From Paraspadella gotoi (Eukaryota; Animalia; Chaetognatha), in the NCBI GenBank assembly GCA_051294375.1, contig CM119266.1:26292851-26356850 (forward strand): DNA of 64,000 nucleotides, in the 5' to 3' direction. Position 1 is the first letter of the stretch. Each line of letters opens with the position of its first letter. Of this stretch, positions 1-55,567 are shown piece by piece. The notes under the pieces were generated by a model, which saw nothing but the letters and a program-made list of their open reading frames with translations, was not told the DNA's origin and searched no databases. Made by a program: the position numbers and the translations under genes.

Positions 1-141
1 GGCGAGACATAGTTGAACGATGCAGTCTTTGAGTAACTGATGGATCTTATGACGTTCCACATAAGCTTCGCATTCTTTGAGGTTGGTCTCGGAGGCAGAA
101 GCTCCGTCACGCGTCGTCGTCGAGCTACTAGGCGACGCCAT
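1..141 (-). CDS. PRKAR1: cAMP-dependent protein kinase type I regulatory subunit, N-terminal part (continues beyond window start)
   Basis: Hand translation from ATG at 141: [47 protein letters not shown], matching the RI dimerisation/docking domain ([25 protein letters not shown] in vertebrate RI-alpha). Not in the ORF track. Confidence 0.9.
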
Positions 142-531
142 TCTTACTTTATTTTTTTCAATACGGTTTTTTGTTTTGTTTCTTTAGTGAAACATCACGC
201 GTATTCTTCGGAATTAAAAATGAACGGAAAATAAACGAATAAGAAAATTTCCAACGGTGGAAATTACAGACACAAACTTGTATAGAAAAAACTTTTTAAA
301 AAATTAACAAAAACTAATGAGAGCGAAAGTAAAACGAGATTAACAAGACTAACTGAAAACTCCGTTAATAACTACAGTATGAGGATACTGTAAAAAAACT
401 AAACCAATAGTATGACAGGAAATAGATCAAATGGTAAAAACAAAACTGACGTTCAGTCCTTAATTGCATTGCATTGATAATAAAAATATCTATAAAATGA
501 AAAGATTAACGACGCTCTTCGATACACGACG

Positions 532-1666
532 CTATTCGAAAAACAACGCCTTCAAAAGGAACAAAGCGGCCATCAGAATCGCTTTTAGGGAAACGTCCAA
601 AGACTTTGGAAAGCTGACACCGACGGCGCCGGAAGCGGAAATGGCGTCAGATCCGGGCGGACCGACTCGAGAGAGGAACTGATCGTGGCAAGAACACAAA
701 TTTAAAAACGAGAGACCAAACTTTATACCGCGGGAACGAACCTTGCCAATTTGTACTTTCCCGTCGGCGTCAAAAATTTTGAAATCGCGATCGGCCCGGT
801 TGGATCCCATTAAAGGAACGCGGCGCCTCTTGACGTGGCAAAGCGCCGAGACATCGTCGCCGGCGTGGACGGTAAGAACGTCGTGAAAGGCCGCCCACCG
901 TAGACGGACGCAGCCGAAGACACCTCGCGAGTGTGACGACACGTCAACGCGCGGAAGGCAGGCAGGAACCAAGAAAGAATTGCATCCGGCGGGACGGCGA
1001 ATGGAGAAAAGCTTTGGAGGCATCAACGAAGAAAAGCGGAATTAAAATTGAAATACATTGCGAATCTTACGCTTCTTCCGGATTGGCCACACCTCCTTGT
1101 AGGCGTGGTCCGTGACGGTGATCTCGAAAGGCCTGTTCTTGCCCATCATTCTGGCTCCGCAACTGACATCTTCCGAGGCCGACAAGACGCGACGTCCCAG
1201 CGCGTCTGCAAAGACGAACTCACCGCCTTCTCGCCAGACGCGCACGTGATCAATCGAGGCGAGGGGCGCGAGACCGAAAGGGTCATCCGTCTCGTTGGCG
1301 GGATTATACAGCGTCAACGGAATCGACTGAAGTTGCGATGGAGAAAGAATCATCGGAGAAACGATGGAGATGTTATGGTTGGTCGTCGGAGAGGGAACAT
1401 CTAAAGGACCGCGATTGACGACGAAGCAGCGAGAATGAAAAACGATGATGAAACTATTTCGAACTACAGTAGCTAGATTTACCGATTCCGCTCTCGTTAC
1501 TTGGATGCGAGTCCGCGGATATGCGTCGCACTGCGGGAGAATCCCCGCCGTCGCCCGGAGGTTCTGCGTAGAACGGAGTGTAAGGCGGTGGCTTTGGTTT
1601 CTCGGGTGCCGAAGGCGCGGCAACGGGGTCTCCTTCGCAACCCTCGGAAATTTTTTCCAGCGACAT
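532..1666 (-). CDS. Phospholipid scramblase family protein (multi-exon)
   Basis: Pro-rich N-terminus (PKPPPYTPFY), scramblase-like core (NRPFEITVTD; DFKIFDADGKVQIGK) and C-terminal VSFPKSLDVSLKAILMAALFLLKALFFE*, like PLSCR [26 protein letters not shown]. Confidence 0.8.
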
Positions 1667-1924
1667 TTTTTTTCTGATTCGAGCTATGAGACTGGACTGA
1701 CTAAATATTTAACAAAAAGTGAAAAAAAAAAAGATGTACAATGAATACATGCATATTTATTGGGCGTCTCTCGTGGGTTGCACCCAGACAATCTACAATC
1801 AATGAAAATAATTGACTTATCCGATCGCGGATTGATGTAAGAGCCAATTTTGAAAAAAGCGTGTTTTGGACTGTTGAAGGGCTAAAAGGCCCGAAAAAAC
1901 AAAAGCGTAAGTCGCCTTGTTCGT

Positions 1925-4900
1925 TCACAGAGGAGCATTGTCGTCGTCCTCGTTTTCTGAATCTGTTCCAAAAATGAAAAATAACATTGAATTTTTAGTT
2001 GCGCCGCGAGTCACTTTTCGGTCGGTCGGTCGGTCTGTCTCACTTATGTTAAAAATGCATATAATTTGTTTATACTATATACGGCTATAGTTGGTTGATG
2101 TTTTGTTAAGACAGGAAAAAAAATTATACTAATCACAGTATTACAAACAAGGAACTCACCGTCAGCTTCTTCGATTTCGTGAACATCTTCATCGCTAGAG
2201 TCTAAAAAGATCTCGTCGTCGTCGTCGTCCGAAAGGGCGACCGCAATGGGACCAAACAATTGTCCTCCAGCTCCATCAGTCGGGTGTCGAAGAAAGCCTA
2301 CGAAACCGAAAATGTTAACAAAAGAAAACAAATTTTTGTTTCCGCTTTTATCCGAATACAACAAGGTTGATTCAGTATAATCATCATCAACAAACAAACA
2401 GACTAAGTCTGTGCAAACAAAAAACATAATAAAATAGAGAAAAAAAAGTTAATTAAATAAAATTAATTAATTAATTCTTATGTGGCAAAAAATGGAACAA
2501 GTTTCTGAAGAACAATATTTTTCATTGTGTAGATCTTTGAGATAAAGGTTTTCTTACGATTATTAAAAATAGTAAATAGGTCGTGGTATCCAAACATACT
2601 CCTAAGTTCTCTCACACTTTCCCATCGATTATATCCAAAAATCCTTCGGGCACCATCCTTTACAGCTACATTTATATCTAAACCTGGAAATTGAGTGGGC
2701 CTGGCGACGGAGACAGAGTCCTCAAGAGCCGCGATGCGCCCGAGTGCCGAGACGCGGGATCGAATCATAGAAGCAAGTGGGCGAGGAAGACAAGTATCCA
2801 ACGAGGGGAGACAATCGCTAGGAAAAAAACACAGACAGCCAATCAATTAATTCATTATCTTTCGGTTTGGATTTTCTTTTTTTTACCCCTCAGACTGGCC
2901 CTTCACGAAACCTCTTGCCCTCCGTATCGAACGCGACACGACCTCGAGCGTCAGACGGGTAAGCGATTCCGCCTCGAACCGGAAGCGAATCAAGTGTGAG
3001 GAGTGAAGAGTTTCGCTTGGCGTGCGCCCGATCGGCGACAGCATTCCACCAAACACGTAAACGCCGGGAGCGCCTGCACTTGTGGGCGGGCTGGTCACGG
3101 TTACGCCCGTGTGCCAGAAAAGACCTGTGAATGTTGTGAAATAAATGGTCCGCTTTAAATAAATTATATTTTTTAATATTTTGTTTATCAATATTTAGTA
3201 AATTTTTAAAGAAATTGTTACCCTTCTTGGAGAGCGGAGTATCGACATTTTCCGGCCAAGGCATCGGAGGAAAAAGCGGTAAGTTCCCAAGGTCAGGAAG
3301 ATCGCGAACGAGATTCCAGGCGAAGGAGTGGACGTCGAAAAGGAAGCCGTCGTGAAGAGGGCGCGAGTTTTGGTCATAGCCGCCGAAGAGAAAGAGAAGC
3401 GAAGGGGATATCGGAGAGAGAGAAGACCAAGACCGACCTTATAATAGTAAATAAAATTTACGGATAATAAATTAGCCGACCCTCGTGACCTCACCGGCTG
3501 GAGGTATGCAGCCCGGAGGAACTGGCAGTTCTCCGCTCCATTCCATAGTTTCCAAGTCGAGTCGGTGCATGTCAGCGTGCCGCGTCAATTCATGACGACC
3601 ACCGAAAAGAAAGACGTAGCTACCGACTCGCGCGCACGCCATCGCCGCCCGCGGCAATGGTCGTGTTCCCAGAGTGGCCACACTTGACCACGACTCTGAG
3701 TCGAGATCAAAAGCGACGAGCTGTCGTTAGACAACGAGAAGACAAGATTACTTATAAAGTAAATAATCTCATCAATATCTCACCAGTAATAAAATATCCG
3801 TCACTATTGGCGTTAAACCTGGTTGTTCCAGCCTCGAGAAGCGCTGATGGGATTGGCAGTGATATCTGGTCGCCACACTCCGTCGCCCTTAATGAAGGTT
3901 GGATCGGAGTCGATGCGAGGACCGAAACCCCCGAAAAAAAAGAGCCGATTCCCGTAGGTCCAACCGCAAAGTTTGTCGCGGCGAGAGGGAAGGGAGGAAG
4001 GGCGAGGAGTCGCATCGGAAATTCTGAAAGGTTCAAATTGAACGAAATGACCAAGTTGTCGCAGCTGTAATTTTAAGTTTAAAAATTAAGTTTAAGAGAA
4101 GTCATAAGATAAAAAAAAAAAAAAATTCTGTGAAGATTGAATTCCTTTGCCAAAGCAAATGACCGAAAGATCAAAGAATTATTGTTATTCTTTCTTTTAG
4201 GAGTCTACGTCGTTCTTAGAAATCGAGGAAGACTTTTTCAATTGAGATTTTCGTTAAAATCTGACTACCAAATAATGTCAACGCTCCTGGAAAAAATTCA
4301 GGTAAAAAATAGATGTAAAAACACTCGATTCCGATCCTGTTGCATCTGAAGGGCTCGCATTTTTTTTCTCTTGACAAATAACCATCATTTTGACATCAAA
4401 CCATCAGATTCAAATGGACTGGTCCGCTCGGGAAAATATTTTTGACGCAATTTTTATATATAAAATAAAGGGATTTCTCAACTTCAATACAATGTCAACG
4501 CATTTAACATATGTTGTGATTTTACAATAAACTTCAAATTCAGGAATCCGATAGCCATATGTCTGAAGGGCTCTCAAAATTTTTCTTTACATTTTATTTG
4601 GTTATTTTGATATGATACGATCATGGGAAAGTGAATTAGTCCATTTTGGTGAAATTTTTATTTAAAGTAAAAGTAAAAGAGGAGCTAACGATCGGAATTC
4701 TAAGAGTTTTCAACCGGGAGTCAGATTCGGGGAAAATCTTCTATGGCGAAAATCTTCCAAAGAAGGGGTCAATTTTCCGAAGATTTTGGTTAATATTTTC
4801 TATATTTATGGTAGGATTTTTTTGAAACTTAATATTAACAATATTGCCATCATTCTACCTTGGCCGGTATAAGAATATATTAAAAAAACCTCTGGCTTTG

Positions 4901-7900
4901 TTCGTCAGAGCTTAGTCCTATTTCTTTAGAAAGAGAGAAACTTTGAACGTTTGAAATTTTTTTCTCGATCGCAACTCATTCATCGTTTTTGCCACTATTT
5001 TTCTCGAGGACCTTCGGCCCTCCACTATACTTGTTCGCGGCAGAACCACGAGCGATTTATTTGAGAGCCTTGGTTAGAGATCACACGCCATATGTCTCCT
5101 AACTTTTTTTAATAGTAACCCTTCATATAACTAACTGTAATGGGAGGGAAAAACAATTTCTACAGGGGTGGGACCACATATCTGGAAACAATTTTAAAAA
5201 TTTGATATAATGCATATTTTGATGCAGCAAAAGCAACTGCTGTGTTTTCTCAGCGCGGTTTGGAAAAAAAAAGTTACTTATTCAATAAGTTATTGTTTAA
5301 TCCTATTCTAAAATTCTAAAATTTCTTCATAAAATTATTAAAATAGAAAAATAAAAAATAGTGAAACAAGTAATTTGCAAATTTTCATATGTCACATAAA
5401 ATTATTAATGAAAATGCTTATTTATAGTATAAGAATGCTCTTGGTATGGTATACATTATATTTTTGTCAAAAAAATATTGTAGTAGTTAAGGTTCGGGTA
5501 AGTTACTATTATAATCAAATTTTTCCCCTACCCCACAATAGAAACAAATAAAAATATTTTCGTCATATTCCATTTATTGAATATCAAATGGTACCGAAGG
5601 TACAATTCATCAAGTTTAGGTTTAATCCGCGATCTTTCAATTTTATCTTTAAAACTCTTCGAAGAGAGATTTGAACTTGTCCGAAGCACCGATGTGTATG
5701 TGCTCTTCGTTTTTTTGGGCGTGAAAGTACTGCGCATCCCCTGGTCCGGCGAGCTCGGGCACAAAAGGCGGGCGCACGGTTTGATTGTAAATTCCTTGAA
5801 AAGACGTCGTAGAGAACCAAGGATGATTGAGGACGTCCAAAGCTCCAGCTGAAACCAAAAATGACAAATTGGAAGGGAAAACATGAAAACTTACCAAGAT
5901 TTTAGCTATAAACCAAGTGGAAAATCACCAAGAAAGAAACCTACCCTTGAGGCAACCGTAACGTTTTGATACGTCATTGTTGAGCAAAGATCGAATGATG
6001 TCGCACAATTCCGAAGAAAAAAATTCAGGACATTTGAAGTTCCCCTTGACTATGCGAGCGTACATCTCCGAATGATCTTAGATTAATTCAAAGCGAGATA
6101 AAAAATCTTAAAAGCATAAGCAATTGCATAAAGAGAGAGAGAGAGAGAGAGAAATAAAAACGAAAAAAAACCCCGATGTTGCGATAGCAAAATGATAACA
6201 TGCACGAATGCGATGCCTAATTTTACGAGTTCAATCCTAATTAACTTTTTTTTTTAATAAAAACGCAGAGAAAGAGACAGAGAGAGAGAGAGGCCAAATC
6301 GTTTTCGGACGAATCAGCAGCGGCAGCAGCAGAGGCAGCCAGAAAAAAAAGAAATCATAAGGTAGAAGCAGCAGAAGAAAAGAAAGAAAAAGAAAGAAAG
6401 CCCCTGCAGAGCCAGCTGCAGACTCGTTTTTTTTTCGATGAATCAGCCTGGGGAAGAGAGAGAGAGCTACATATAATTAAAAGAGAAAAGAGAGAGAGAG
6501 AGAAGACAAAAAAAATTTATTTATTTTGATAAAACATAAACAAAACATATTTAATAACTGTCCTCACCCAATTTCAAGGACCTCGATGATGAGAAGCTAT
6601 ATATAAATTTTCAGCTTCATACACCCAAATTTAATCATGAAAAAGGCGATCTATAAATTGGAACGCCAACGACGACGACGACGCCTACGCCACTTAAGTG
6701 CAAAACCACGTCAAAATCGTCGCAATCGTTTAGAAAAATACAATAACTGAATAAGAGAAAAAGATGAACCTTTGCAGTGAAAGGGAACGTTTCCTGCAGC
6801 CATCTCGTAAATCAAAATCCCTACGGTCCACCAATCAACGGATTTCCCGTAACCTGGCGGCGCAGTTAAATTAAATAAGACGAAAAGAGAAAATCTCATC
6901 TTGTGTGAATCTTTGCACCTTTGTGCTTGATGACCTCAGGAGCAAGATATTCTGGCGTTCCGCAAAGTGTGTATGTTCTGATAAATAACTCGGTTAAAAC
7001 AGACGAAATAAAACTATTTTTCAAGGGCACCTTTGATCTTCGGCAATTCGTTTTGCGAATCCAAAATCGGTTATCTTTGTGTAACCAGTTGACGTGAGCA
7101 ACATATTTTCTGGCTTTAAATCTCTATTCCACAATTAAGAAAAATTAGTAACACTTATACCACTGTCGTAACCTTTGATAGGTTTTACCGGTAAATTATT
7201 CCCAGTCTGTGCAAAAAGTCGAAAGATAAGACGACTTGGGCGCAGTAAAACCTTAAAGAGACGCGCGTTTCCAGTCAACTAAGGTATCGGATCTAAAAAT
7301 AAAAATATAGGTCCACAACCTCGTTGACGATTCATTGAAGCGCCGAGACTTTCTAAGGTGAGTAAACATTTCGCCCCCGTTCTCGAATGACAAAACCATG
7401 TAAAGGTTCGAGGTGTCCTATTAAACAAAAATCAACCCATTCACCACCGTAATTCCATTTTTATCATTCAATTTTTTTTGCCTTGAAGCAGTACACGAGA
7501 CGTACGATGAATGGAAAATCTATCGCTTGAAGAATTTTTTTCTCGTTCAAAGTATGTTCAACCTAAAGTAATCAGAGGAGGATTTAGCTTGCCGTTCCAT
7601 TCCTCCTGCCCCTCGGTATATTTTGTCTAGCGATACATTCTCTAGTTTCTACTCTTCGCGAAATATACGATTTTTTCCTTCTATTTCCTCACGCCTTCAA
7701 TACCCCTAAAGTAGAAATCTACTATGAAATTAAATTCAATAGGGGCGGGGGTTCAAAACTTTAGTCTTGAAGTCTACTTTTAGGTAAAAAAAGAATTTTT
7801 AAAAAATGTTCGATTTTTATGCTTTTATTACAATATTACTATATAATGATAAAAAAAAAATTTAATCAATCTTAACTTTTTTTGATGGATTCTGTTAGAG

Positions 7901-10900
7901 CATAAAAAGTTAAATAAAAACTTTCAAAAATATTTAGGTTTTCTTGGTCAAAATTAAGGAAAAAGTAATAAAATAATCGAAAAATGATGATGATGATTAT
8001 AAATAGTTTTTCATATTTTTCACACACTTATGATCAAAATATTGAAAAAAGAATTATACTTTGTATAGACAACTTTAAAAATAAAAAAAAAAAATTTTTT
8101 AGCCTTTCCTATTTATAAATAAATATTAAAAAATTAATATATGGAGTATGGAGTAATATTAAAAATTTTTATCTATTCAATTTTTTAAAAAAATGTTTAA
8201 ATTTTCGTTTGAGCAGGTGCTTAATTCAAATTTCTTAACCACCTTACTGAGTTAGTTTCCCCCTATAAAGGTAATGACTAATAAATCGAAATTGTTCTTA
8301 TAACCCCTAAAATGAATCGAGAGCCAAACCTGTTTTGTCTTGACGACCTTTTCTTTGACAAGAAGTTTCATGGCGAAATATTCCTTTGTTTTCTGATGTT
8401 TCACCTTTTTGATATAACCAGAAACGACTTGGATAAATTGTTTCAACAATACAGCAAGTAAGGGGATGAAAAACGAACCAAAATAACTCGCCCGAAAGAT
8501 CCCGAACCCAAAGTACGAGTCAAACGAAAATCGTCCAATTTTCCGTTGTCCCTCATCGGATTAGCCCACTGAGTTTCGAAGTACGCTTTGTGTCTTAACA
8601 AAAAATTGTGCAAATTTTCAAACTTTTTAAAGGCGGTTAAAAGAACGTTAAAAATAACTATTACCTAAAATATGGCAGATTGACATTAATTAACAATAAA
8701 TGTTTATAAAATTAAAAACATGCGGCGACAATAACAACAACACCAACTTGGTGATAGCTTCAGTCCACCACACATCAGCCGCGTCGTTCTGACCACTAGC
8801 GATGTTGTTGAGGCTCAATACTGTGGTCTGAGAAAGAGCCTGGGCGGAACTTACCCGGTTACGATTGCTGAAATTGAGTGCATGTAAATGATAAAATTGC
8901 CAGAATTGACGATTTATATAGGATAATAACGAATAAACTATCAACATAAATGCGGACAAAAATAGGAAAAAAATTATATCAACGTTTACTCAGAAACCAC
9001 AATGCTGATAATAATAAAGCATATTAATTAAGTAGCTTAAACCGAATCCTTGACAAAAAAAAATGGGTACTACCTTTTTTTTCATTCAGCAGATTATAAT
9101 TTTTTTCATCCATCGTACCTGGCTTTCGAAGCTAAGGTCTTGGCATTGGCGTTTACATCGTACAAGATGTCCGAATTTCTAAATGTTTCATCAATAACAG
9201 TAAAAGAAACTTTTTAGGGTCTTCCCCAGAGAATTCGAGACGATCGAAAGAAACCTACCGAAGAATTGACCTTAGCGGCTTGTTGGCAGCAGCTATGGGC
9301 CTCAAAGGCATGATGATTTTGTGCGATCAAGAAAAAAAAACGAGATCGAGAGATTTAGCTACAAATAATCGAGACGGAAATTTGTTCTTGCCGCCAAAGA
9401 TTCCAAAAAAAAGTTTTTTTCATAATAATACTTTATGGGTTATAGAAACAATATTCGCTACGCTATATAATTAAGAGTCGTTACTTCAATTCACTCCCGG
9501 TTATTAGTCAGAAGAGTAGCATAAAACTCAAAAACCCATTACATTATAAAAGAATATACTCTATATATAGTGAAATTTATTAAATTCTAACATTTATTTT
9601 AAAATTTTAATCTAAAATTTTAAAGTCTAATTTAGTAAAACAAGTAATCTTGCAATTTTTCATAAAGTGGCTAGCGGTTTATCTGATATCTTGCGCTCCT
9701 TTCTCTCCTAGCTTTTGAGTATTTTTTCCCCCAATTTTTATTTCAATTATAACCTTTTAAAGGCATAAACAACATATAACTTTTTAACATTTCTCATCTG
9801 TAAATAAATATTGAAAAATCTTAAAGTATTCAGGGGTGGGACAAAACTGCCCTGTCTGAACGATTTGAGATACAATAATAAAATGAGTGGGAAAAGTTTT
9901 ATCTGGATTTTCACTTTCATATACAATGAAACAATACATTTTTAAGCAACCGCAAGGCGTCGTGGATGTTTTCAAATCAATTAGTCGTTTTTATGCACGC
10001 GCATTGTAGTGCATACGATGAAAGCCGTACTTGTTAAATATTTTTCAGTTGTCATTTCTTAACATGACAGTGTTATGTGTTTGTTTTATCTTCAATTTAC
10101 CTGATTTTAAGCTTTTCATAAATTTCCAAATTGAACCCATGTACAGAAGGCTTCATATTATAAAATGTGGTGCCCCTTTTTTGTGACCAGAACACGTTCC
10201 GAGAAACTATTGAATAGATTTTAATGAAATTTGGTATAAACGATCCCTATGTAAATACAAATAAAAATATCGAGGCGAATTTCAATATTGCACTTGCCGC
10301 TGAGCCCGACGTATTGGGGCCCGGTAGGGGTCACTCATGGGGGCAAAAATGGTTAAAATTTGTTGTTATTATTATTTTTTTTTTTTTTGGAACAGTTGCC
10401 CAGACATTTACTCTTCCACAAAAATGTATTTATTTCCACAAAAAATATTAGTTTACCATAAGTTTCAGCTTCATGAAACATCAGCTGTTCAAGTCAGATT
10501 TGGAATAATTCTGGAAAATTTGGAGAAAAACGATGAACCATGCATCTTCAAACACCGATTAATTAGCAAAAAAATTTATTTTAATTTTAGTTTTAAAAAA
10601 TATTTTTATATGGTTAAAACATCGATGAACCTGATTCTACTAAAAAAATATAAAAAATGCAAACATAAATTTTAGCCTTTTTTGGCCCCCCAGGGCCCTG
10701 TATCTCTTGTCAGGGGTTGAATTTTAAAATGCGCCTCAATAGTTCCATTTATATTGTCATTTGAACTCTAAATGTAAAATTTCATGAAATTCGATTCAGT
10801 AGTTTGGTGGGAACAGATTTTGGTCACAAAAAAGGGGTACTGTGGACGAACAATTACAACACGCAAATGGTTTGACCGAGGTTGCGTGTTGTAATTGTTC

Positions 10901-12067
10901 GTCCACAGTACCTCATTTTATAATATGAAGCCTTCTGTAATTATTTTTCAGGTAAATAAAATAAAATTTTAGGAAGATTTTAACAAATATGCTTAATTCG
11001 TCAAATACTTTGTGTATTTCTTACCATTTAGACCCTTTTATTATGTATTAAGAAATTTTACATGATTAATTTAATTATCTGACAAATCAAATCTTTTGAT
11101 ACAACTAAGTTTTATTAAAAATTAATAGAACCTTACCTGCTTACTTCAAAATTTTTGTAACCAAAATGCAATGTCCCCCTTGCCAGAATCATTAGTATAC
11201 TACAAATATGTATTTTTTATTTTATGTATTTTATGTATTCATTAATACAACGATAATCATTCATTAATACAATGATAATCATTAATGCCAAGAATCATTA
11301 ATACATTTGTTGCCATAAATTATTCCTTGATGCAATGATAGCGATTCCTTGATACGATGAGTCATTCATTGATGCAAAGATAATCATCCATTAATGAGAT
11401 ACTAGTCATGAATAAATGATGATAATCGTTTATTGATGCGATGATAATCATCCATTGATGCGTGGATAAACGTTTATTAATACAACTATAACGATTAATT
11501 ATCAATGCAATAATATTTGATAATGATCATGATCGTCGGTGACCGGTTGTACTGCGGCTCAGGTTCCGAGAAAACGTACCGTTTTTCGTCATCGTCGTCT
11601 TCCTCGTCTTCGTCTTCGTAATGAGGAAGTCCGTCGGCCCTCGTCCAGACGAAGGTCTTTAAGTTCAACTTGTACAATGAGTTGAGGTTCGAATGACTTT
11701 CGGTAAACCCGGCAAAGAGATACATAAAGTGACTGTGAACGACAGCGCAACTACCTGCGAGGAATAATTATAAATTAATAAGGGCAAAACAAATACACTT
11801 AAATAAGCGAAGTGGATACGCACCTGACGAGACTCGCGGCAGTTGTCCAGTGCACTCTTGACGTCTCCATTCTTGAGTGAAAGTGTTGAAGATCCAGACG
11901 ACGTAATTGGGTAGGTAACGTTCGTCCGTCCAACGAGCCACGTTTAGTTCTTGGTAGCCTCCCCATACGTACACGCAGGGTCCATAAGCGACGGACACGT
12001 GACCCGAGCGCGACTCTGGTCGCGCCGATAGAGGGCGAAGGTGACACGGGACAATCTCGTGCGCCAT
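1925..12067 (-). CDS. KLHDC2: Kelch domain-containing protein 2/1-like (about 9 exons; 7.5 kb intron 4024-11579)
   Basis: Exons in colinear order: [19 protein letters not shown] (12067-), [35 protein letters not shown]...RGWNNQ (4023-3820), [45 protein letters not shown]...[17 protein letters not shown] (BC-box-like), then an acidic tail ending DDDNAPL* at 1925. Confidence 0.85.
4205..4920. repeat. About 700-bp dispersed repeat (second copy about 31498-32188)
   Basis: Colinear similarity from TACGTCGTTCTTAGA to GCTTTGTTCGTCAGAGCTTAGTCCTA. Confidence 0.8.
5649..9311 (-). CDS. Divergent PKA catalytic subunit-like Ser/Thr kinase, nested in the KLHDC2 intron
   Basis: Exons encode [87 protein letters not shown] and a C-terminal FEEF* hydrophobic motif. 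The N-terminal exons (9311-8750) are less certain. Confidence 0.88.
10144..10937. mobile_element. Tc1/mariner-type MITE
   Basis: TIR CAGAAGGCTTCATATTATAAAATG flanked by TA on both sides. A shorter copy lies at about 55232-55540. Confidence 0.75.
10840..10908. mobile_element. 69-bp palindromic MITE nested in the above
   Basis: 27-bp TIR CTGTGGACGAACAATTACAACACGCAA and TA TSD. The empty site GGGGTACCTCATTTT is present in the 55.5 kb copy. Confidence 0.8.
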
Positions 12068-19983: not shown

Positions 19984-22900
19984 TCAGAGCGCTGAGTCAC
20001 TGCTCAGAGATATAGAGGATAAGTCGGGGCAAAGTTTCCCAAGATCGTCTGACATCTCATCGGCGAGGGCATCGATGATATCGAGGAGTAATGGTCGCGG
20101 TAACGACTTGATCGGCGGCAGTCGCGCCACTTTGCTAAAATTGTGGACGATAAGGTTAAGAGCGTGCTTCTTCATGTCCATAGCCTGGTTGAAACAAAAC
20201 AAATAGTAAGAACTCGATAGAAAACGATGCAAAAAAAACGTCTTTTCAGCGGAAAACCTGAATCTTGTCGGAGGCTTCCAAAATCTGAACAACGTTTTGC
20301 ACTGAGACGTTCATTTCAAGATTGTGTTTGCAAAATGCCTGAAGACGGTTGTTGGTGAAACCGTAGAAATAAGGGGCCGAAAAGAGATATAATGAATCCT
20401 CGGGCGGCATTGTGACGTCGCCCCAATAGAGGTACCGAAGAAGCGAGTCGAAAGCCTGAATCAAGAGGGAACGTTACCTGCTTGCATTGACAATTATGCA
20501 TCCTATGAATATATATTATATATATTATATATTATGAATACTGTCGTATCGATGAGAATTACCTGCCGTGAAGGTATCATTTCTCCGATGGAGATGGTAA
20601 CTTCGTCGTTTTCCGGCATAAATGAGCGAAACATAGCCTCAAAGTAAGACGACCTCGCCGCCATAATCGCCTTGTGTGCAGCGACGGGAATTTCTCCTAA
20701 TCTAAGGACGATATCGCAGAACTCTTTTCCTTTAAATTCGAGGAAGGCTTGGAGATCCTGCTCCAAGGATTTATTCATCAACGACGATGAATCAGGTCCG
20801 GGTTCCGGCAACGATCTGAGAGTAAAAAAAACAACCGGTTTTACAACGACTTTCCACATTGAAGTTGCCGCAATAATTCTGTCAAACCTGACGATAGGCA
20901 TTTGTCGCCTTCGGATAACCTCGACCATCAATGGTTGCTCCAGCGTCTCAAACTCCTTGGACATGACGATTTCGTCGTAGTTTGTTTCTTTGACAACGAA
21001 CTTGAGGCAGAATTCCTTGAGAAAGGCCAAATTCAATCTGGCCGCATTCTGCAGCGCCGCCAACACGTTACGATGGCTGATGGAAACCTCCAGATAATTT
21101 ACGCACAATTGCTCCAGACGGGCCATCTCGAATTGCAACGCAAGCCGGTAGACCTTGGAAGATGATCGAGTAATCGTCAAAAATCAAATGACTTTTTTTC
21201 GTTGGACCAATCAAATTTTGAGTACCTCCATCATTAGCAAAATAACTTGGTTGCTGTTGGGGTCACGGCCTCCTCGAGTCGGGCAGATCCGGTCCGTGTA
21301 AATATAGGACAGAACGAGGCGAAAGGCCTCGGGTACGGCGTCTGGTAAGGCTACTGACGCTTTCACGGATTTAAAGCGAGTTTGAGGCGCGAGGCGACGG
21401 ACCGCGGACGAGCTCACACCCTAGAGCAATCATAAAAAGAAATGTTTACCCAAAAAATACAAGTTGTAAATAAGTTTAAGCAAACAATGTCGGATCTGCC
21501 CACGATCAATATCGGTAATTAATTAATAAATAATTAATTAGGCAATTAATTAATTAATTTGATCCCAAATGTTTGTTTTTAAGTCTTTTTGTCACTCACC
21601 ACGACAAAAGCAATGACGACGATGAGAATAATGCCGATAACGATTTACTTGATTGATTGATCGAATAAATAATTAATAGATAAAAAAATTGATTGATTGA
21701 ATAATTAATCGATTGATTAGTTGACTGATTAATTAATTATTGATTAATTAATTGACTAATTGATTAATTAACTGATTAATTATTTGATTAATTAATACAT
21801 CTAGCATTTACATTTAATATAAAAAGAAAAAGAAGCATAATCAATTAATGAAACAGGTTTTTTATTTTTTCCATTTAAACTCATTTCCACTCAAACGATT
21901 CCATTAAAACTTGATTTCCAGCTTAATCACACACTTCCCTACCTACACACAAAATTTCATTCCAATCCATCCATCCCATCACGAGTAATTGGCGTTTTTT
22001 GCTAAGGTGGGACGGACGGACAGACAGACAGACGGACAGACTGACGGACATAATTTTTTTTGCATAATTTATCATAATTCGATATTTTGACATGATATAA
22101 GTGAATGCCCAACAAGATTCAGGGGGCGGACCGACGGACCGACAAAGTGAATTAGAGTCGGCATCTGCTGATAAGCAGATCCGACTAAAAACGCTCTCTC
22201 GATGAAACATATTTACCTCAGGAGGAACGGAATGCGCCAGAGATTCCAGAGCCTGTTTGATTTTTAACTTCAACCAATCGGATCTACAAAAAATGTCGAG
22301 ATAACAGTCGAACTACTAATGTTTTTCACTCGAATTTCGTCGACGAAATTAGTGAATAGTGTTTTAAAATTTTAACTCGAAATATTACGGAACCTGGCGG
22401 CGACGATGGCGACGTGGGCGCCGATGATGACGCGTTGGACGCCAACGACGAACTCAAGATCACAGAAGAGGCGAGACTCGAGAAGCTTCCCGTAGTCGCT
22501 GTGGAGCGTGCACTTGGGGTAGGAAGAGAACTGAAACCGGTACATCTCCCCAGAGCGTATGTTATTGTCTACGGTGCCGCCAAATACGAACATGGCGTCC
22601 CCGACCACGGCAGCAGCGTGGAAAAGCCGTCCGGAGGGACGTTGGGAATCCTGGTGTGAAAGAGAAGCGATCGAAACGCATTAAAACTTGTGTTAAATAA
22701 ATCGAAGAAAATAGCAATTAAAAGAAGAATGAGGAAGTATTAAAGATAAGTATAAAGTTATTTAATTTTCTCACTGGTGTCGGAGCGACGACAGCCCAAG
22801 ATTGGGCGTCAAGATCGAAGCAGTGAAGCTCATTCGGCATCGCCTGACCCGCCGCTCCGCCAAAGACGTAGAGGTGGCGGTCATGGGCGACCATGGTATG

Positions 22901-24133
22901 GCCGTAGCGACGCTCCGGCGGCGGCGGCGTGCCGCGTAGGATGTGCTCTGTAGAAATACGAGTCCAGCATCGATCCTAGAACAGAGAAAGGAGAAAATTG
23001 CAAAGGCGATATTCAAATTTCTAATCAGACATTCTTTGTTGGGTACCCGAAAAAAGAACTGAAAGAGATTGTTCGTCGTCTTGGCTCCCGACTGGCCAGA
23101 AAAAACGAACATGGTGTCGCGGGAAACGGCGACGGGAAAGTTGCAACAGGTTGGTGGGGAATCTCCACTTTGCACCACCTCTTCCCAGAGGAACGAACGC
23201 GGTCGCAGGGAGAGCGTCCACATGTCGTTGAGCCGCGAGTTTCCGTCGTAACCGGCGAAAATCCACATGTTCGAGTCGTAGACGCATGCGCCGTGGGCTG
23301 CTCTGGCGACCGGAACGCGGCCTAAGATAGGATTGTTTTAGTCACAATTTGAGATTAATGGTATATAATAAATGAACTTTGGATTCAACGGAAAATGAGA
23401 TTGAGCTCAGCAATATCGTGTTGGTATTGACTTGTCAGGAATTTTTCTGTACTTCTGTATTATTGACATTTGAGTCAGTTTGTCTAGTTCTTTTGAATCT
23501 ATCTTTAGTAATAAAAATATAACACGAGTGAAGAAGCAGGATGATTACCGTCGAACCTCCATTCGACCCACTGGCCAGTAGCGAACTTGTACTCGTACAA
23601 ATCGTTTTTGTTGGTCAAATTGCTGTTGGAATGAATGTCGCCGGTATAGCCACCGAAAACGAACATGCTACCTTCGTGAACGACGGCCGAGTGATGATAT
23701 CTGAACATGAAAAGCATAGTAAAAGTTTGATAACGGCGAGAACATCGAGTGATCAACTACACCATACCTCGGAGCAGGCGGCCATCCGGTGGAAAAGGCG
23801 CGGCCCCAGGATTTATCCTTGCAGTCGAAACGAAGAAGGTCGTTCAGCATCGATTTTCCATTATCGCCTCCGAAGACATAGATGGCTTCTTTGTAGGCAA
23901 CAACCGTGTGCTTGCTTCGACGAGTACCCACGAATTCGTCGCATTCTGGTCAAGTGATTTTACATGAGAAAATTCGGATTTGATAATATTGTTGAGACGA
24001 GCCCTTTTTTTAAACCTGGCATTCTCCGCCATTTCTGAACTGGTTCGAAGGGACCAAAGTCGAGGGTAAGACATTCCGCGCTGTCCGGCCAGTTGTGGTC
24101 GAACTCGGCACCCGCCGGCCGAGCAATCGCCAT
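19984..24133 (-). CDS. LZTR1: Leucine-zipper-like transcriptional regulator 1 (Kelch-BTB-BACK)
   Basis: [77 protein letters not shown], two BTB regions ([23 protein letters not shown]) and C-terminal [14 protein letters not shown]. Confidence 0.95.
21470..22190 (-). mobile_element. DINE-1/HINE-like (Helentron-associated) non-autonomous element
   Basis: Subterminal inverted repeat GTCGGATCTGC/GCAGATCCGAC, an adjacent hairpin at one end, a GTCY microsatellite (about 22010-22050) and A/T-run flanks. Related copies at about 16745-17088, 58145-60083 and 61480-62690. Confidence 0.65.
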
Positions 24134-24544: not shown

Positions 24545-25857
24545 TCAAGAGCCTTCACGATTTACTTCGACAAAAACTGCTGTCTTTCCTCCCCGACTTC
24601 TATTATTTTTTGAGAGTTTAGAAGCTTCCGTCGTTAGAAATTTTGACTCGCGGGCGGTAAATAAAACGCAGTTGGTCAAAAACGGCTCCACGGCGTCGTT
24701 TGAATTGCCCCCTTTTCCCCCGGTCTTTTTCGCGAAAGCTTCCCTCTTCTTTCGCTCCTTGACTTGATCGCGGCTTCTCTTTTTTTCAAACTTGTCGGAC
24801 GCGTGGATCACTTCGCCGCCGTCGACGTTCTTGGCATAACTGCAAATGCAGAGGGCTGCGGTGACGCAGACAAAAAACGCGGCGATACACGCAATAGCCA
24901 CGTATATATTAGTTCGGTACTGGAGAAGCTTACGACGTCGCGCCGCCGCTTTCCTCTCTTTCTTGAAATCGGCGTTGTAGTTTCTCGATCCGAGACGCCT
25001 ATGCTCGGGACGAAATTGTTCCAGGCAACCGAACTCGTCCGAGGAATCCCCGCAATTATCGATAAAAAAATCGTCACATCGGAGCCGGAAATCCAGGCAA
25101 CGTCCGTTTCGGCACCGAAAGGCATCAAAACAGGGGTCACCGCAACCGTCCTCGTCGGAGCCGTCAGGGCAGTTGTCGAGGCGATCGCAGCGGAGGTTCG
25201 CGGGCAGACATTCACCAGTTGAGCATCTGGGCGAGAGAAATGAAGGAGAAATGCGTTAATAAAGGTCTATCTCCGTGTTCCTTTTTTGCACAAATAGTCA
25301 CATACCCAAACTGATCCGAACGACATTGCGTTCTGTTTCCGACCCCTTCAACGACCAATTCGACGGTAACCTGGTCTCCCGATCGAGTCCTCGATCCCCA
25401 ATTTACGGCGCACGCATAGAGGCCAGCGTCTTCGCTTCTGAGGCTAGCGAGACGCAATTGAGAGGTGGATGCGTCGCGACGTAAGATGGTGGTGCGGTCG
25501 TTGGTGTATTTGATGCGGGGCGCGTGAGAACCTCTTTGACGTTCCTAGAAGAAAGAAATTGAAAAGAAAAAATGCAAAGTTAACGTAACTTGCAAACGTT
25601 TGTGAACTTACTTTATCCGAAAGAAAAAGCCATGTGATCTCCGTGGGACTGTCGTGGCCACTAAATCGGCAGGTCAGAGTCAATTCGGCATTGGGGCGTC
25701 GAACTACAGCGCCGAAGGGGTACATAAACAGATTCTCGGCACGAGAATTAACGAAAAGCGAGAGAAGTAAAATGATCGACATGACACAAGCGGATGAGGA
25801 AAATAAAGCGCTAATTTGGGGCGATAGCTCGGAGGAAGTTCGAAGTAACATCGGCAT
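24545..25857 (-). CDS. Single-pass membrane protein with signal peptide, Ig domain and two LDL-receptor class A repeats
   Basis: Hydrophobic IILLLSLFVNSRA; Ig motifs LTLTCRF..ITW and LRSEDAGLYACAV; LDLa CSTGECLPANLRCDRLDNCPDGSDEDGC and FRCRNGRCLDFRLRCDDFFIDNCGDSSDEFGC; TM IYVAIACIAAFFVCVTAALCIC; basic tail. The start codon (25857 or 25782) and last exon are uncertain. Confidence 0.75.
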
Positions 25858-26007
25858 TCGGAGGCGAGTAAAGAAATTTTTGAGGGGAACTGCACCATGG
25901 AGAAGTAAACGAGAATCTAACAAACAAGTTTATATTCTATTTCAGCGAATTGAAGTCCGATTGGTTTTTCCTTTTTTTCGTCCAATTGGTAACAAAGAGA
26001 GAACAAA

Positions 26008-27984
26008 TTATTCTTCAGTCACTTTTAATGATGATTCCTCTCGTATTTGAGGGTCTAAATTGATGTTTTGGTGGCCACATAAGCGTTTGAGCGGCTCTTC
26101 GATCTCTCTCTCAAACCGTCGAATTTGTTCAGCATTTAAATAGTTGACCCAGTCCCCGATGGCGCCTTTGCGCATAAATTCCCCTCCCTTTTTGATTATG
26201 CCGAGATCCTGGAACCAGGAATAATTGCAAGTCTTTATATTCCGCAATACGGCGAAGCTGGTAAAATGCCTGAGAGGGAGACGCGTAAGCTTTACTTTTC
26301 GCCAAGATTTCGCAAGAAGAGACAAGAGCGTGCAGGAGAGTACAAACCTGATCCAATCCAGTTCCACGGGACTGTAGGGCCCTACGCGCAAAAACTTGGA
26401 GATACGATCCACTTCCCGTTTAAAATTGGTCTTTAACTCTTCAAAGTGGACGATCAGAATCCTTCGATTGATGCCTGGCAACTGACTCGCCGAAACGTAC
26501 GAAGCAACGTGTGGAACGTAGGGAGAGTAAGGAAGATCGCCGCTGAAGAAATCCTCGATGAAATCGGAAAAGTCGAAACCATCGGCCATCTGCACCTGAG
26601 TTTCGGAAGTTATTGATATCTGAGTGAAGGCAGAGCACAATAAAGTTCTTTTATCCAATTTAAACAGTTTTTTAAAAAATTATACCAAATCAAGATAGCT
26701 TATTAATTAAAAGAAGTGGTTATACCAATTTCATAGTGAAAGTTAAATACGGGAACTTAAAAATTTATTAGTTTAAGATCTAAATTTTCTTGCCTCGGTC
26801 AGGATGCCCATGAAATGAAAGAGACTGACTGCAACATCCCGAGGATTGCGAGTAACATAGATAATCTTCGTTGCGGGGCACTCTAGTACGGACGGGGGAA
26901 GAAGTGACAACGGCAAATGGGATTTGATGATGCGCGGCGAAGGCAGTTGATCGATGGCATCGCGGCCCGGGCATGGGAACTCGATGAAAGGAATTCGCTC
27001 GTCCAGATTGGTCTTTACGGCTTTCTCAATGGCTTGACTCATATGATAATCTTCGTGCCACTGTGGCAAAGCGAAGGGCGGACAGTTAAACCTCCCTGCT
27101 ACACCTTAATATACATTGTATACGTATGTATGTACGCACGTATACTTATGAACGTATATGTACGTATGTACATATGTATTGGTCGTACCAATTCCAAAAC
27201 GGTCAGCTGCTTATGTGTAGCTTATTTATCAAATGAATGGATAATATTTATATTGGTTGTACCAATTTCATTGTATTCCCGATCCCATACTTAAGGGAGT
27301 GTCCATTTTATACAATTAAAACATTCTTTGAAACATTATACCACTTCAATGATAAGGAAGCCCTGAACTCTGGGAGTAAACAAAATAGACTGTGTGAGAG
27401 TCTTGATTGAAAGCTTGCAGGGTCCTGCTATTTTATAAGCCAATAAGAGGTATGAAGGCCTTAACCAACCATAGCGTGTCCAAAGTCAGGGAATAGAAAG
27501 CTCATTATTAAATGAATGGATGATTTTTATATCGGTTGTACCAATTTTATGCCTAAAATCGGTACATATTTCTTTTTTTACCCTGTTAAGGAGCATGAAG
27601 ACGATCTCTTCGACCCATGTTGTGCCGCTCTTCGGATAGGAAACGATCCAAACGTCTGATCGTCGAGTTTCAAAATCCCGAATCTTATCGAGCTCCACGA
27701 AATCGGGAAGGTTGAAAGAAAGACACTGCAATTCAAGTGTGAGAAACATCCTTCTTTGTCAAACGATTAAACATGAAGCGAATGGAATCGAATACCTGTT
27801 TTACTTTAAAGTTGGGTCCATACTGCGGCAGACGCTTTTGTGTGATCGCAAGTGATTCTATCTCCGGAGTAGACAAGACCGCGCTACCTTTCGTTGTTTC
27901 GTAAGCATAAATCGCTAGACATCCGGTCCCAACGGCAGATGCCAGGAAGACGCATTTTCTCGTCCAAGAAAGTTTTGGTGACAT
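26008..27984 (-). CDS. Cytosolic-type (Sulfotransfer_1) sulfotransferase with hydrophobic N-terminus
   Basis: 5'-PSB loop DVWIVSYPKSGTTW, IIKSHLP, 3'-PB motif RNPRDVAVSLFHF and C-terminal FMRKGAIGDWVNY. Confidence 0.9.
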
Positions 27985-28167
27985 TAAAATGTCGTAAAAC
28001 TAAAGTGTTTTGTAAGCGGAAAAAGCACTTTCTATATATAAGTTTTTTTTTAAATAAGAAACAACCACATAATAATTAATCAACTACATTTTTTTTCAAT
28101 TTTCGTTAAGGGTAACAGTAAAAAAAATTATTTTAGAACTGTGACTATAATTAGACAATATTAAAAT

Positions 28168-31100
28168 TCACCACCCTTTTTTCTTCTTTTTTCCTTGTGG
28201 TTTCTTGCCCTTATTTCCACCGCTTCCGGATGCTTTTTGCTGAGACTGTTGCTGCTGTTGTGGTACCGATTTCCCGCCAGTGCTCTGTAGCGTCGGAGAG
28301 GCTGTTGGAGGTGAAGCAGCCTTCGGTACGGCTCCTTAAACAAGCGGATAAAAAGAAATTCATCTTCCCCTAAAAAAAACCTCAAATCTCTCCCAAATCC
28401 CAAAGATAAACCCTTACCTGGGGCAGGTTTAGACGCGTCCAAACCCTCCACGGTTCCAACGCCGCCCTGTGTTCCTTTGCCAATTCCGCCGTCTTTGCGC
28501 TTGTCGCGACGTCGGCCCTTGTAATTAGAGCGATCCTTGCGAGGCAGCCAGCGTTCGGGATCAGGATCGGATTTTGGATCAAAGTTCTTTGGGAGTTTTC
28601 CTCGTCGTTTGCGGCGTTTCTTTGATTTCGACAGTAGGAGTTCCGTAGCCCCGGCTTTAACTGAGAAAAAAGAAAGCGATTAATCGTGGTTTGTAGCGGT
28701 AGTATTTCATACCCGGCATCGTCTTCCACAGGTTGAACAATTAAGCGGGATGGGAGACTTACCCCCGGCGACAGAAGGCGATGTTTTCTTGTCGTCGTCC
28801 TTGGTCTGAGTCTTTCTAGAGTACTTGGGACCCGAAGCGAAACAGTGAGCCTCCAGCTCGTCAACGTTAACGCCGTGAGCCATTTCCTCGGGTGATGGCA
28901 AATCGCGAGAAACCTGGATCAGAAAAAAAAATTTGCTCGAGAACGACATTTTCGAATTTTCGAAAAAAATATTTTGACTAAAAGATGCGCTAACCTTCTG
29001 CGCCTTCACCGGATCAATTGTGGCGTAGGCGGTAATGAGCTGCGCCAACAATCTCAGATCTCTCGGAGCCTTGGTGCGCAATTCCTCTAACAACGTCACA
29101 GCACTGGAATTTTGCCCCAGAGAAAGCATAGTCGAAGCGCATTCTCGCATCAGCATTTCTAAAGACGAGTCACTCAACCGGTTCTGTTTTGAAACATAGT
29201 TATCCATATGAAAATTGTCCACTCGGGTTGAAAAAATCAGAGTCATACCTCTTTTTTGTTAAAAGCAATAGCGGAAGACAGGTAGTCGACGGCGGCGTCC
29301 TTGTCTTCCATATTTTTCAGTAGGGCCACGACAGTAGCGACAACGCCCAGGCGAAACCGGGTCCCCTCGCCTAAGTATTTAAGTCTTTCCACGGCGAGAC
29401 TGATGGAACCTATAAAAAATAACAGTTAAATTTATTAAACTTAGTTTTTTATTTTTAATACGTATATTGTGGCGAAACCTGAATTCGCCTCCCGTATAGC
29501 TTGGACGGTTAAGTACTCGTTCACCGTGAGTTCCCCGTGAGTTCCGGGTTCAATCCCCTCACAGTCACGATGGTGTCGGCATAAACACGCCAGTGACATG
29601 GGGTGGTCACTGCAGGTCCAAAGCCCTGAGCGCCAGCTTTCGGGAGATGCCTCACACTCTTGGTCTCCCCGTTGCCATAATATTATGAATTAGGATAAAA
29701 AATATCAGGGCACCTTGCTGAAGATGAAGTTGAACTAGGGCCAAGGCGGCGCGAAGGCATTCCGAGTTTCGGTTCTTTGCTTTCTTGGCGGCCACGAACT
29801 CCTCGAGGGTCGCAAACGCCTAAAACCATTTTTCTTTAATAATTACGAATCTTTAAGATAATCTCGATCTCACCAAACCTACGATCCTTACCTCGGAGTT
29901 TTTCTTCTCGCGCAAAAATGAGGCAGCGATAACGAGGGTCAACTCTTCCTGCATGTCTGTCTCCTTTTCCAACAAAGTCCCTATTAGTTTTCGAGAGGCG
30001 TCGCCCTGTCCTATTAAGAGATAAAAAAAAATATTTTCTTGAAAATTTAGGCGGAAGTTCAACACTACAAAAAAAGTAGCCACTTGTTTCGCACCGAGAA
30101 AAACTATATTGGATAACTGAATTTCATAAAGATATAAAACAAAGTTTATTAAAAGATGAGGCGATTGGTCCAAGACCTATAAAATCAAGCAAAGTGGTCG
30201 AAAATTATAGGATGTCTAAGTATTATAAATATTTAATAATAGAAGAAAGTCATAAACTCTTTGTCTAAAATATTTTAAAAGAAAAATAAAGCAAATTTAT
30301 TGCCAACCCTCTTATATATTAAATTCCGTTATGATTTTATTAATTCTATTTTGTAAACATCAGTCCAAAAAAGAAGTGTCATTAACTCTAACCTTTAAAA
30401 ATAACATTTTCCCTATTTCGTTTTGAGACTGACTAAGGTCTTGCGGTAGACCGCCTAAACCAATTAAAACTTTTTTTGCACCAATCGATAGCTCTTTACA
30501 AAATTTTAAAAATATAGTGATCTCGTCAGACGTTGCTATCAAAGAAAATTAATGAAAAAATCCGAAAAAAAAAAACGAATGATTCATGCGATAACAAATT
30601 ATTGATGTAATTTGACCGGAATAAAACTCACAAGAGCGATCAAATGATAGAGTACAATCCCCTTTTTTGCGGTGTTTAAACATAATAATTTAGAGTCACT
30701 TTAAAGATGAAATCAATTTTAATCATAAATTTTAAGATAAATTTTTGATTAATATCATAATTACTAATATTATTAATATTTAATTTTTATTAATATTTTT
30801 AATAATAATAATATTATTAATTGACTAAATTTAATTAAATTTGTTTATTAATTTTTTTAATTTGGCTTACCCTTTACCATATCTCATATTAAACATGGCC
30901 ATTCAACTTATTCTACTTAAATTTTAAGTTTTATTAAACAAACCTTTATAATACTTAGTAATAAAGGTTAATAAGTAATAAATATGAGATATAACAAGAT
31001 AAATTTTTAATTTTTGATAAAAATTATTTTTTAAATTAATTCTTAGAAATTAAAAAATTTAATTATAAATAATTAAATCTAAATTCAGGTAAAAAAACTC

Positions 31101-34100: not shown

Positions 34101-34838
34101 TTCGTGGATGATAGCATCCACGGTCGAAGCGGCGGCCCTTTGCTCTTGCAGGTGCAGAGCCGCAGCCACCGCAGACACGTTCGTCATGCGCTCCTCTTCG
34201 TAGTCGTCCTCGCTTTCCTGGATACGAATGCGAAAAAAAATTATGAAAAAATTGATTTACAGTAGTAATAAGTGTCCAACCTTTATTAACTCTTTGTACA
34301 ACTTGAGGCAATCCTCGTATTTTTCCAGCCTGTAGAAAATCTGAGCCTTCAGCTCGTTTATTCGAAAAACATCGGCGTGAGATAGACCTTCGACAGAGCA
34401 TTTCGTCAAAGTCTCCAAGGACTCGTTCAACCGGTTCAGTCGGTACTCTGGTCAACCAAATGATTGTGTAAAATAATTTTTTTAGTAAAAACGTGCAATA
34501 AAGACTAACCCGCGTAAGCTTTTTCGAAACCAAGGCCATCGCTGAGCGAGGAATGCTTGTCGATGAGAACGAGTGCATCATTGAAGGCCCCCTGCTGAAT
34601 CATGGCCAATAGCTTGCAGCGAAAGGCATCGACATCTTGAGGACTGTCTTGTAGAATCCTGATAGAGTTAATAATAAAATTTAGAATATAAAGTAAAAAT
34701 CTCACGGGAAAAAAATTGGGGAAAAAAAATAACACACCGGTTGGCCACTTGTATAATTCGAGCATATTCTTGGTTTTGACAACAACGATGAAGCTCATTG
34801 AAAAGTTGAGGAAGGCCCGTGGGACCTGTACCAGACAT
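28168..34838 (-). CDS. SRP72: Signal recognition particle subunit SRP72 (multi-exon, about 3.5 kb repeat-filled intron)
   Basis: FEKAYAEYRLNRL, ELKAQIFYRLE, IRVQLAYVLQMQG, AVASNN, LLAQLITAYA, PDPERWLPRKDRSNYKGRRR and a lysine-rich end KKKKKGW*. Confidence 0.92.
29468..29679 (+). mobile_element. Solo LTR of a related tRNA/twister TRIM family (SRP72 intron)
   Basis: Ends TGTGGC...GCCATA, 4-bp TSD ATAT, A-box-like TAGCTTGGACGG, B box GGGTTCAATCCC and a partial twister core. Confidence 0.75.
29569..29628 (+). ncRNA. Degenerate twister ribozyme motif
   Basis: GA-TGG-TGTCGGCA-T^AA-ACAC-GC-CAGTGAC..GTCACTG-CAGG-T-CCA-AAGC-CCTG. T1 is TGG/CCA; the P2 and P5 partner strands are missing. Confidence 0.55.
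30616..32957. repeat. Large degenerate foldback (arms about 600 bp) in the SRP72 intron
   Basis: CCGGAATAAAACTCACAAGAGC at 30616 mirrors GCTCTTGTGAGTTTTATTCCGG ending 32957. Further mirrored blocks occur at 30950/32620 and 31210/32470. Confidence 0.65.
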
Positions 34839-35356
34839 GTTACTGCCCTAGTTTATTTTGAAATAAAAATTCGCAGAATGTAATTTTCTAAAAAGATGAA
34901 ACATTTTTACCGAAAAAGAATTTTTTTAGCGGTGATACAAAATAAAAAGATTCAAAGTGCAAATTAAAGAAAAAAATATTAAAAACCGAAACAACAATTA
35001 TAGAATAGAATAAGAAAACAATTTACAATTTATAATGTATACTGTATAGGGTAAGGCAGGACTAGAAATGTTCTTGATTACAAATACAAAACGTGCCACT
35101 ACTGTACGAAGAAAATGTGGCCTACCTCTTTGGTAGGTAACATGAAGTTTTAGTTCGTGATTTTGCAGTAAAAAGTTTTAGAATATAGAGTACCGTCCTA
35201 AGGATTTCACTGAAAATAATCCCGTTTTATGAAGATACACTTGGTCATTTGTAAGTTTGTCGGAATATTGTAAAAAAGTTTACCAAAATAAGAAAAAAAA
35301 AGAGTGACCAAACGGTCATTAGAAAGTATAGGAAAACGCCAAAATATTCAACTTTT

Positions 35357-46699: not shown

Positions 46700-46830
46700 T
46701 ATCCCTTACCCTAAACTTACTTACCCCTACACTTAATTATCCCTCACCCTAAACTTACTTAATTATCCCTCACCCTAAACTTACTTAATTATCCCTCACC
46801 CTAAACTTATTTCTAACCCTAAACTTATCC
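46700..46830. repeat. Degenerate CCCTAA-containing tandem repeat (mirror TTAGGG-like tract at about 48420-48490)
   Basis: Repeated CCCTCACCCTAAACTTACTTAATTAT units. Confidence 0.6.
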
Positions 46831-55540: not shown

Positions 55541-55567
55541 TATATAATTTGTATATATATATATAAC

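Follow-up and report, generated by a model that had tools for sequence, protein, structure and literature searches.

We analyzed a stretch of 64,000 nucleotides from Paraspadella gotoi (Chaetognatha; assembly GCA_051294375.1, contig CM119266.1, positions 26,292,851 to 26,356,850 of the forward strand), referred to here as the window, in which a gene for a PKA-C-like protein kinase lies entirely within intron 2 of a gene for a kelch protein nearest KLHDC2. Both genes are on the minus strand. The nine exons of the host join into one stop-free open frame of 537 amino acids, and the kinase gene encodes a stop-free protein of 410 amino acids in 13 exons, so that the complete multi-exon kinase noticed in a preliminary description of this locus is confirmed. 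The coordinates of all features discussed below are collected in Table 1.

The boundaries of intron 2 (AAAACG/gtacgt at the end of exon 2, position 11580, and ctttcag/AATTTC at the start of exon 3, position 4023) and their matching phase 2 had been given correctly in the preliminary description. Intron 2 has roughly ten times the length of any other intron annotated in the window: the 40 remaining non-kinase introns range from 57 to 796 nt, and the median intron measures 81 nt. A scan of the window against Rfam at gathering thresholds gave no match, and therefore neither a snoRNA nor a leader RNA explains the intron. Its first 36 nt (11544-11579) form the most GC-rich intron start among 53 examined; they end in a second in-frame donor, which would add 12 amino acids at a point where two relatives carry a longer linker.

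A search for homologues of the host returned four matches, of which three transcript-derived proteins (P0001, P0003 and P0004) are full-length and the fourth is a fragment of 156 amino acids. The three relatives are 72-79% identical to the product of exons 1-2 over their amino acids 1-140, and 50-54% identical to that of exons 3-9, starting at their amino acids 145-156. Both host halves thus align in order, with nothing doubled and nothing absent, as the earlier claim of colinearity with KLHDC2 homologues had it, and the break between exons 2 and 3 lies in a variable acidic linker. Exons 3-9 contain no methionine before amino acid 235; together with the conservation of exons 1-2, this indicates that the two halves are meaningful only as one protein. 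The best solved match of relative P0004 is human KLHDC2 (E 1e-57, compared with 4.5e-16 for KLHDC10), and through this relative the host is assigned as a predicted kelch propeller nearest KLHDC2. A metagenome scan with P0004 found a single distant locus of 24% identity, which was not used.

The kinase aligns with PRKACA and nematode PKA-C across all catalytic motifs, an 11-residue motif of the activation segment and the C-terminal FxxF. PKA C-alpha was the top PDB match for each of the three exons searched (exons 7, 12 and 13), and the whole protein is 57.6% identical to nematode PKA-C and 43.8% identical to an RSK (a named PRKX was not among the proteins compared). In the residue numbering that we take to be that of PKA, K72, E91, D166, N171, D184, T197, E208, D220 and R280 are all present, and judged by these residues the kinase is probably enzymatically active. 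Unlike the named PKA-C proteins, which share 78-89% identity among themselves, it is only 51-58% identical to any of them and has a unique N-terminus of about 75 amino acids without Gly2. It also departs at E121, V123, W196, Y235, F239, D241, D328-Y330 and S338, which are replaced by S, E, Y, N, H, K, HAQ and G/A, respectively; these positions presumably belong to the hinge, the PKI pocket (P+1) and the C-tail tether. H87, T197, K213, K217 and Y247 are retained while W196 is replaced by Y, residues that we assume to bear on inhibition by the R subunit and release by cAMP. By its sequence, the kinase is a divergent PKA-C paralogue, for which divergent or sperm-specific PKA-C forms (PMC5526564) provide a comparison.

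A HMMER search found one close fragment of this kinase, P0134 from a marine sample (51% identity over 65 amino acids; longest contig 1,266 nt). As P0134 has the derived tail of the kinase, the paralogue likely predates this species. No homologue came up in a word-based search with the final exon of the kinase, and the Atlas returned only unnamed or Pkinase_C clusters; the paralogue appears unstudied so far. Its 12 introns point to a duplication at the DNA level or to later intron gain rather than to a fresh retrocopy, and we infer that the gene arose as a DNA-level duplicate of PKA-C. Intron 6 (7418-7481) is of the GC-AG type, with its joint seen in RNA; a second GC-AG intron is predicted in a sulfotransferase gene (26596-26793).

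Table 1. Features of the KLHDC2 locus and its nested kinase gene (window coordinates)
Feature	Position	Strand	Basis and remarks
KLHDC2 exon 1	11824..12067	-	ATG at 12067; 74-79% identity to P0001/P0003/P0004; kelch Pfam matches
KLHDC2 exon 2	11580..11754	-	Donor ACG/GTACGT; alternative weaker in-frame donor possible at 11544 (+12 amino acids)
KLHDC2 intron 2	4024..11579	-	7,556 nt, phase 2
KLHDC2 exons 3-9	1925..4023 (4023-3819, 3720-3495, 3437-3222, 3124-2887, 2817-2684, 2297-2160, 1962-1925)	-	Open frame, homology, length and depth fit of X9 contig 25
PKA-C-like gene, 13 exons	5649..9311 (9311-9259, 9178-9119, 8867-8748, 8593-8479, 8404-8330, 7562-7482, 7417-7320, 7251-7189, 7123-7031, 6977-6919, 6853-6770, 6076-5945, 5848-5649)	-	12 RNA joints, open frame; exons 7, 12 and 13 match PKA C-alpha first in PDB
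Kinase 5' leader	9312..9649	-	338 nt in RNA (X9 contig 27 piece 9259-9649); 5 upstream ATGs; unpaired acceptor tttgtag at 9359/9358
AATAAA, likely kinase poly(A) signal	5573..5578	-	Sequence
Dispersed repeat between kinase and host exon 3	4187..4920	.	734 nt; 84% identical copy at 31483-32188; very high DNA depth
Element upstream of kinase, like a miniature inverted-repeat transposable element	10142..10939	.	30-nt terminal inverted repeats (97%)
Scramblase-like gene	531..1666	-	258 nt past host stop, on contig 25; weak Pfam Scramblase match below cut-off
PKA type I regulatory subunit (PKA-RI) gene start	1..141	-	PDB RI-alpha E 3e-8; on contig 25 with host exons 3-9

To examine expression, contigs from four sequencing runs were mapped on positions 1-11100: three DNA runs and X9, taken as RNA solely from its splice joints. 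Contig 27 of X9 (1,621 nt, depth 516) runs unbroken through the 5' leader and all 13 kinase exons, with 12 of 12 introns removed; the same joints occur in none of the three DNA runs. Its 5' piece is colinear with the genome from 9649 to 9259, passing the candidate acceptor at 9358, and carries neither a spliced leader nor a host exon. With 12 introns spliced and nothing foreign at its 5' end, this contig shows the kinase to have an mRNA of its own, without any exon of the host. The preliminary description had left open whether the kinase has its own promoter or is released from the intron by trans-splicing, and had pointed to 9330-9400 as a place for leader addition. Because contig 27 is colinear from 9649 through 9358, an own promoter is the better supported of the two. 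Leader addition at 9358 is nevertheless compatible with these data, since X9 contig 25 is equally unbroken across two gene starts where trans-splicing would be expected in an operon. At the 3' end of contig 27 (position 5630), 31 terminal letters are absent from the window, and the site resembles what we take to be the start of a sequencing adapter. The transcription unit is bracketed by an AT-rich direct repeat of 84 nt (5311-5389 and 9582-9664; 76% identity) that occurs nowhere else in the window; the 5' end of contig 27 falls within the upstream copy. As a mark of insertion these repeats are a lead only: the 3' copy lies inside a multi-copy repeat, and other contigs exit the window at the 5' copy.

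The host message is represented by contig 25 (5,156 nt, depth 190), which covers host exons 3-9, the scramblase-like gene and the start of the PKA-RI gene. The exon model explains 5,126 of its letters; exactly 30 remain, which precede exon 3 and do not come from the intron. An assembly that uses 31-letter words would leave an overlap of just this length at a fork. Of the 20 depth bins examined, nine agree with the two contigs to within 0.05, and ten exceed them owing to repeats or further contigs; in the bin that holds the start of exon 3 the excess is 0.48, equivalent to one additional aligned letter. Exon 2 ends in CG and so shares exactly one end letter with the end of the intron. The leaders of chaetognaths given in PMC2481426 have A as their last letter and would share no letter with it, so that the one-letter excess is a better match for exon 2 than for a spliced leader. 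From length, depth and homology, and hence indirectly, it is likely that the host mRNA joins exon 2 to exon 3 (11580-4023). The prediction that host transcripts skip about a dozen same-sense kinase exons thus stands as far as nesting and strand are concerned, and the skipping itself is supported indirectly by the 30 letters, the depth and the homology.

The same 30 letters could also belong to a spliced leader, added to exons 3-9 after the RNA is cut at the kinase 3' end, with exons 1-2 ending in the intron and the host functionally split. Contig 25 stops 30 letters before exon 3, and a leader of 36 nt would give the same overlap. We consider such a split highly unlikely: the depth fits one shared letter, whereas the listed leaders give zero (or two, if a leader ended in AG), exons 3-9 lack a methionine before amino acid 235, and the relatives are full-length with highly conserved exons 1-2.

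A host intron of this size might also be an artifact, in which a kinase block from elsewhere was joined in through repeats. DNA contigs do end at repeats to either side of the kinase (the 734-nt dispersed repeat, the element with terminal inverted repeats and a short satellite), and none of those listed spans 4223-4894 or the repeats above 9564; these short-read contigs speak neither for nor against the assembly continuity that the preliminary description wanted checked. Unique DNA contigs, however, have even depth across host and kinase (96-116 in run X1). A misassembly would need two misjoins that leave and re-enter one and the same intron, each repeat is shorter than 1 kb, the window contains no N, and the sole repeat pair shared by the flanks is the 84-nt one at 76% identity. 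Of the explanations considered here, misassembly is the least probable.

We therefore regard it as likely that this is an independently promoted nested PKA-C-like gene with its own mRNA, while host transcripts remove the whole 7.6-kb intron. The kinase would be transcribed from a promoter near 9650, and KLHDC2 transcripts would remove intron 2 in a single step. Outside the tissue in which the kinase is expressed, its small, GC-poor exons with their somewhat weak acceptors may be poorly recognized in host transcripts, and its poly(A) signal may be read through, such that host exons and downstream genes are still made. The kinase is probably tissue-restricted; by analogy to flies, the male germ line is the best guess. 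Kinase exons have a median length of 84 nt and 45% GC, compared with 161-289 nt and 48-58% GC in neighboring genes. The kinase acceptors score below those of 41 other introns (one-sided p 0.023; pyrimidines p 0.042) in a comparison comprising 13 uncorrected tests on hand-annotated introns.

Host and kinase exons could also be co-spliced at a meaningful rate into kelch-kinase or kinase-kelch fusions. The reading frame would allow this, as host exon 2 could be joined in frame to six of the 12 kinase acceptors (with kinase exon 2 the product has 532 amino acids), and six of the 12 kinase donors could be joined in frame to host exon 3; exon 2 spliced to the acceptor at 9358 meets an immediate stop. 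Since the kinase contig has its own leader and is unbroken at 12 of 12 junctions, the dominant chimeric splicing envisaged in the preliminary description did not appear, although this excludes dominant chimeras only, as assemblers can prune minor forks. Fusions at such a rate seem to us very improbable, even slightly more so than the split host.

Several observations weigh against independent promotion combined with removal of the whole intron. All RNA evidence consists of contigs from one run, in which starts, ends and minor isoforms are invisible. The 30 letters were identified by length and depth only, with exon 2 itself lying outside the mapped region, and the depth excess of 0.48 could stem from an additional, faint contig. 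Kinase exons 1, 4, 8 and 12 would likewise share one letter with the intron end; a major exit from these exons is, however, spoken against by the unbroken kinase contig. Only two of the 13 splice-site tests fell below 0.05. Weak kinase donors did not reach significance (p 0.064), and unusually strong splice sites in the host were rejected as an explanation, with the intron 2 donor ranking 22nd and its acceptor 32nd of 41. With half of the kinase acceptors in frame, decay of mis-spliced RNA cannot account for all of the skipping.

The host gene is itself part of a dense gene run, in which all genes from 24133 down to 1 are on the minus strand. Seven of them (LZTR1-like, glycerate kinase-like, IMP4-like, BAF, KLHDC2, scramblase-like and PKA-RI) have stop-to-start gaps of 170-512 nt. 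BAF, DUF4147 and a kelch domain in this run were assigned by Pfam; the names LZTR1, IMP4 and glycerate kinase are our presumed identifications. Poly(A) hexamers are found in all six intergenic gaps, and in four of them an acceptor-like YAG directly precedes the ATG. In several gaps a hexamer stands immediately ahead of the next acceptor, and 12 nt separate an AATAAA from the ATG of PKA-RI downstream of it. Contig 25 crosses two of the short gaps, although a contig over several genes does not prove a single transcript. The run is probably an operon, resembling those of chaetognaths. A quick tree of 64 rows, selected from 120 listed matches, placed the EF1-gamma encoded in the window in a long-stemmed clade of 34 rows together with 33 other proteins, separate from all 22 named animals; named chaetognaths were not among these, and the placement made a chaetognath origin probable.

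In such a setting, the kinase could be an alternative cistron: a polycistronic RNA from upstream would be cut early in intron 2 and receive a leader at 9358, with the same pre-mRNA giving rise to KLHDC2 or, alternatively, to the kinase. The operon-like signals just described would suit this arrangement, as would the AATAAA hexamers at 11478 and 11434, the fork before exon 3, which implies a second continuation of the upstream exon, and the fact that a leader at 9358 would strip all five upstream ATGs. About half of chaetognath genes are trans-spliced (PMC12460157). We nevertheless consider an alternative cistron quite unlikely. The kinase contig retains 291 unbroken nucleotides upstream of 9358, both AATAAA hexamers are some 2.1 kb away from that acceptor, compared with an operon definition of at most 250 bp (PMC12460157), and no leader was seen among the loose ends listed (24 of 1,592).

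Returning to a promoter of the kinase's own, this promoter may double as an internal promoter of a trans-spliced operon. Polymerase would then continue through host exons 3-9 and the scramblase-like gene to PKA-RI, switching on kinase and RI together, with KLHDC2 silenced or truncated in those cells. This idea is speculative and on balance unlikely; if true, the nested gene would act as a switch within an animal operon, pairing a tissue-specific catalytic paralogue with its regulatory subunit. The PKA-RI gene begins 5.5 kb downstream of the kinase, which may be chance.

In typical animal annotations, nested genes account for 5-10% of the total, and in a glass sponge their share is 12% (PMC10282587). 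That they are more often antisense, as the preliminary description had remarked, holds for flies (71% antisense, 28.7% same-strand; Lee and Chang 2013, PMC3814207; Assis 2016, PMC5174743). In mammals, the orientation bias of host/nested pairs is only slight, with a same-strand share broadly like the antisense one (Montibus et al. 2024, PMC11694760); an early human set contains 75 nested parallel pairs (PMC2330155). By the fly and mammalian figures, the same-strand orientation is less unusual than that remark implied. Fly same-strand nested genes are single-exon in 72.5% of cases, the multi-exon ones having a median of one intron (PMC3814207, PMC5174743), and 58% peak in testis (PMC3814207). 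Like these, the kinase is a divergent duplicate lying as a whole gene in one intron of a broadly conserved host; unlike them, it has 12 introns, and its host appears internal to an operon-like run. Chaetognath duplicates are not poorer in introns (PMC12460157). As in mammalian pairs (PMC11694760, PMC2330155), the nested gene occupies the largest, 5'-proximal intron of its host, but here the genome is compact, and the host intron exceeds the other annotated ones about tenfold.

Same-strand nesting is thus a known kind of arrangement, of which 12 introns represent the extreme end. The low intron number of same-strand nested genes is usually explained by selection against mis-splicing. A gene with 12 introns that is probably skipped within a conserved host provides a natural test of how the spliceosome and the 3'-end machinery ignore an entire gene, all the more as half of the kinase junctions are in frame and its poly(A) signal lies in the path of downstream genes. 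It is also an annotation trap, because a gene finder that does not allow nesting would break KLHDC2 apart or merge both genes.

Like chaetognath spliced-leader operons (PMC2481426, PMC12460157), the run combines tightly spaced same-strand housekeeping genes, hexamers near the next acceptor and an RNA contig over gaps; unlike them, the KLHDC2 locus showed no leader among the loose ends listed. Nested genes are not mentioned in the main text of PMC12460157, and the literature searched (main texts, few subscription papers) contained no description of a nested gene within a trans-spliced operon. In C. elegans, the alternative or hybrid operons of Morton and Blumenthal (2011) reportedly comprise a same-strand gene inside an intron of an operon gene, cut from a shared pre-mRNA. 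The kinase RNA, in contrast, suggests a start of its own, some 2 kb from the beginning of the intron.

Further features were noted in the remainder of the window. The LZTR1-like gene (19984-24133; 12 exons, 786 amino acids) is a second kelch gene in the same run. A membrane protein is predicted at 24545-25929, in which Ig-like and LDL-receptor-like cysteine repeats were recognized by eye. Positions 28163-35000 hold a gene that we presume to be SRP72-like, its exons split by a very AT-rich segment of about 3.5 kb that contains a copy of the KLHDC2 intron 2 repeat. Short-period satellite arrays are located at about 11250-11500, 48935-49400 and 58222-58722, the first two being related. On the plus strand, 51362-54407 contains long multi-zinc-finger open frames, antisense between the exons of an apparent carboxypeptidase gene (about 46000-61000), and these are possibly a second nested gene.

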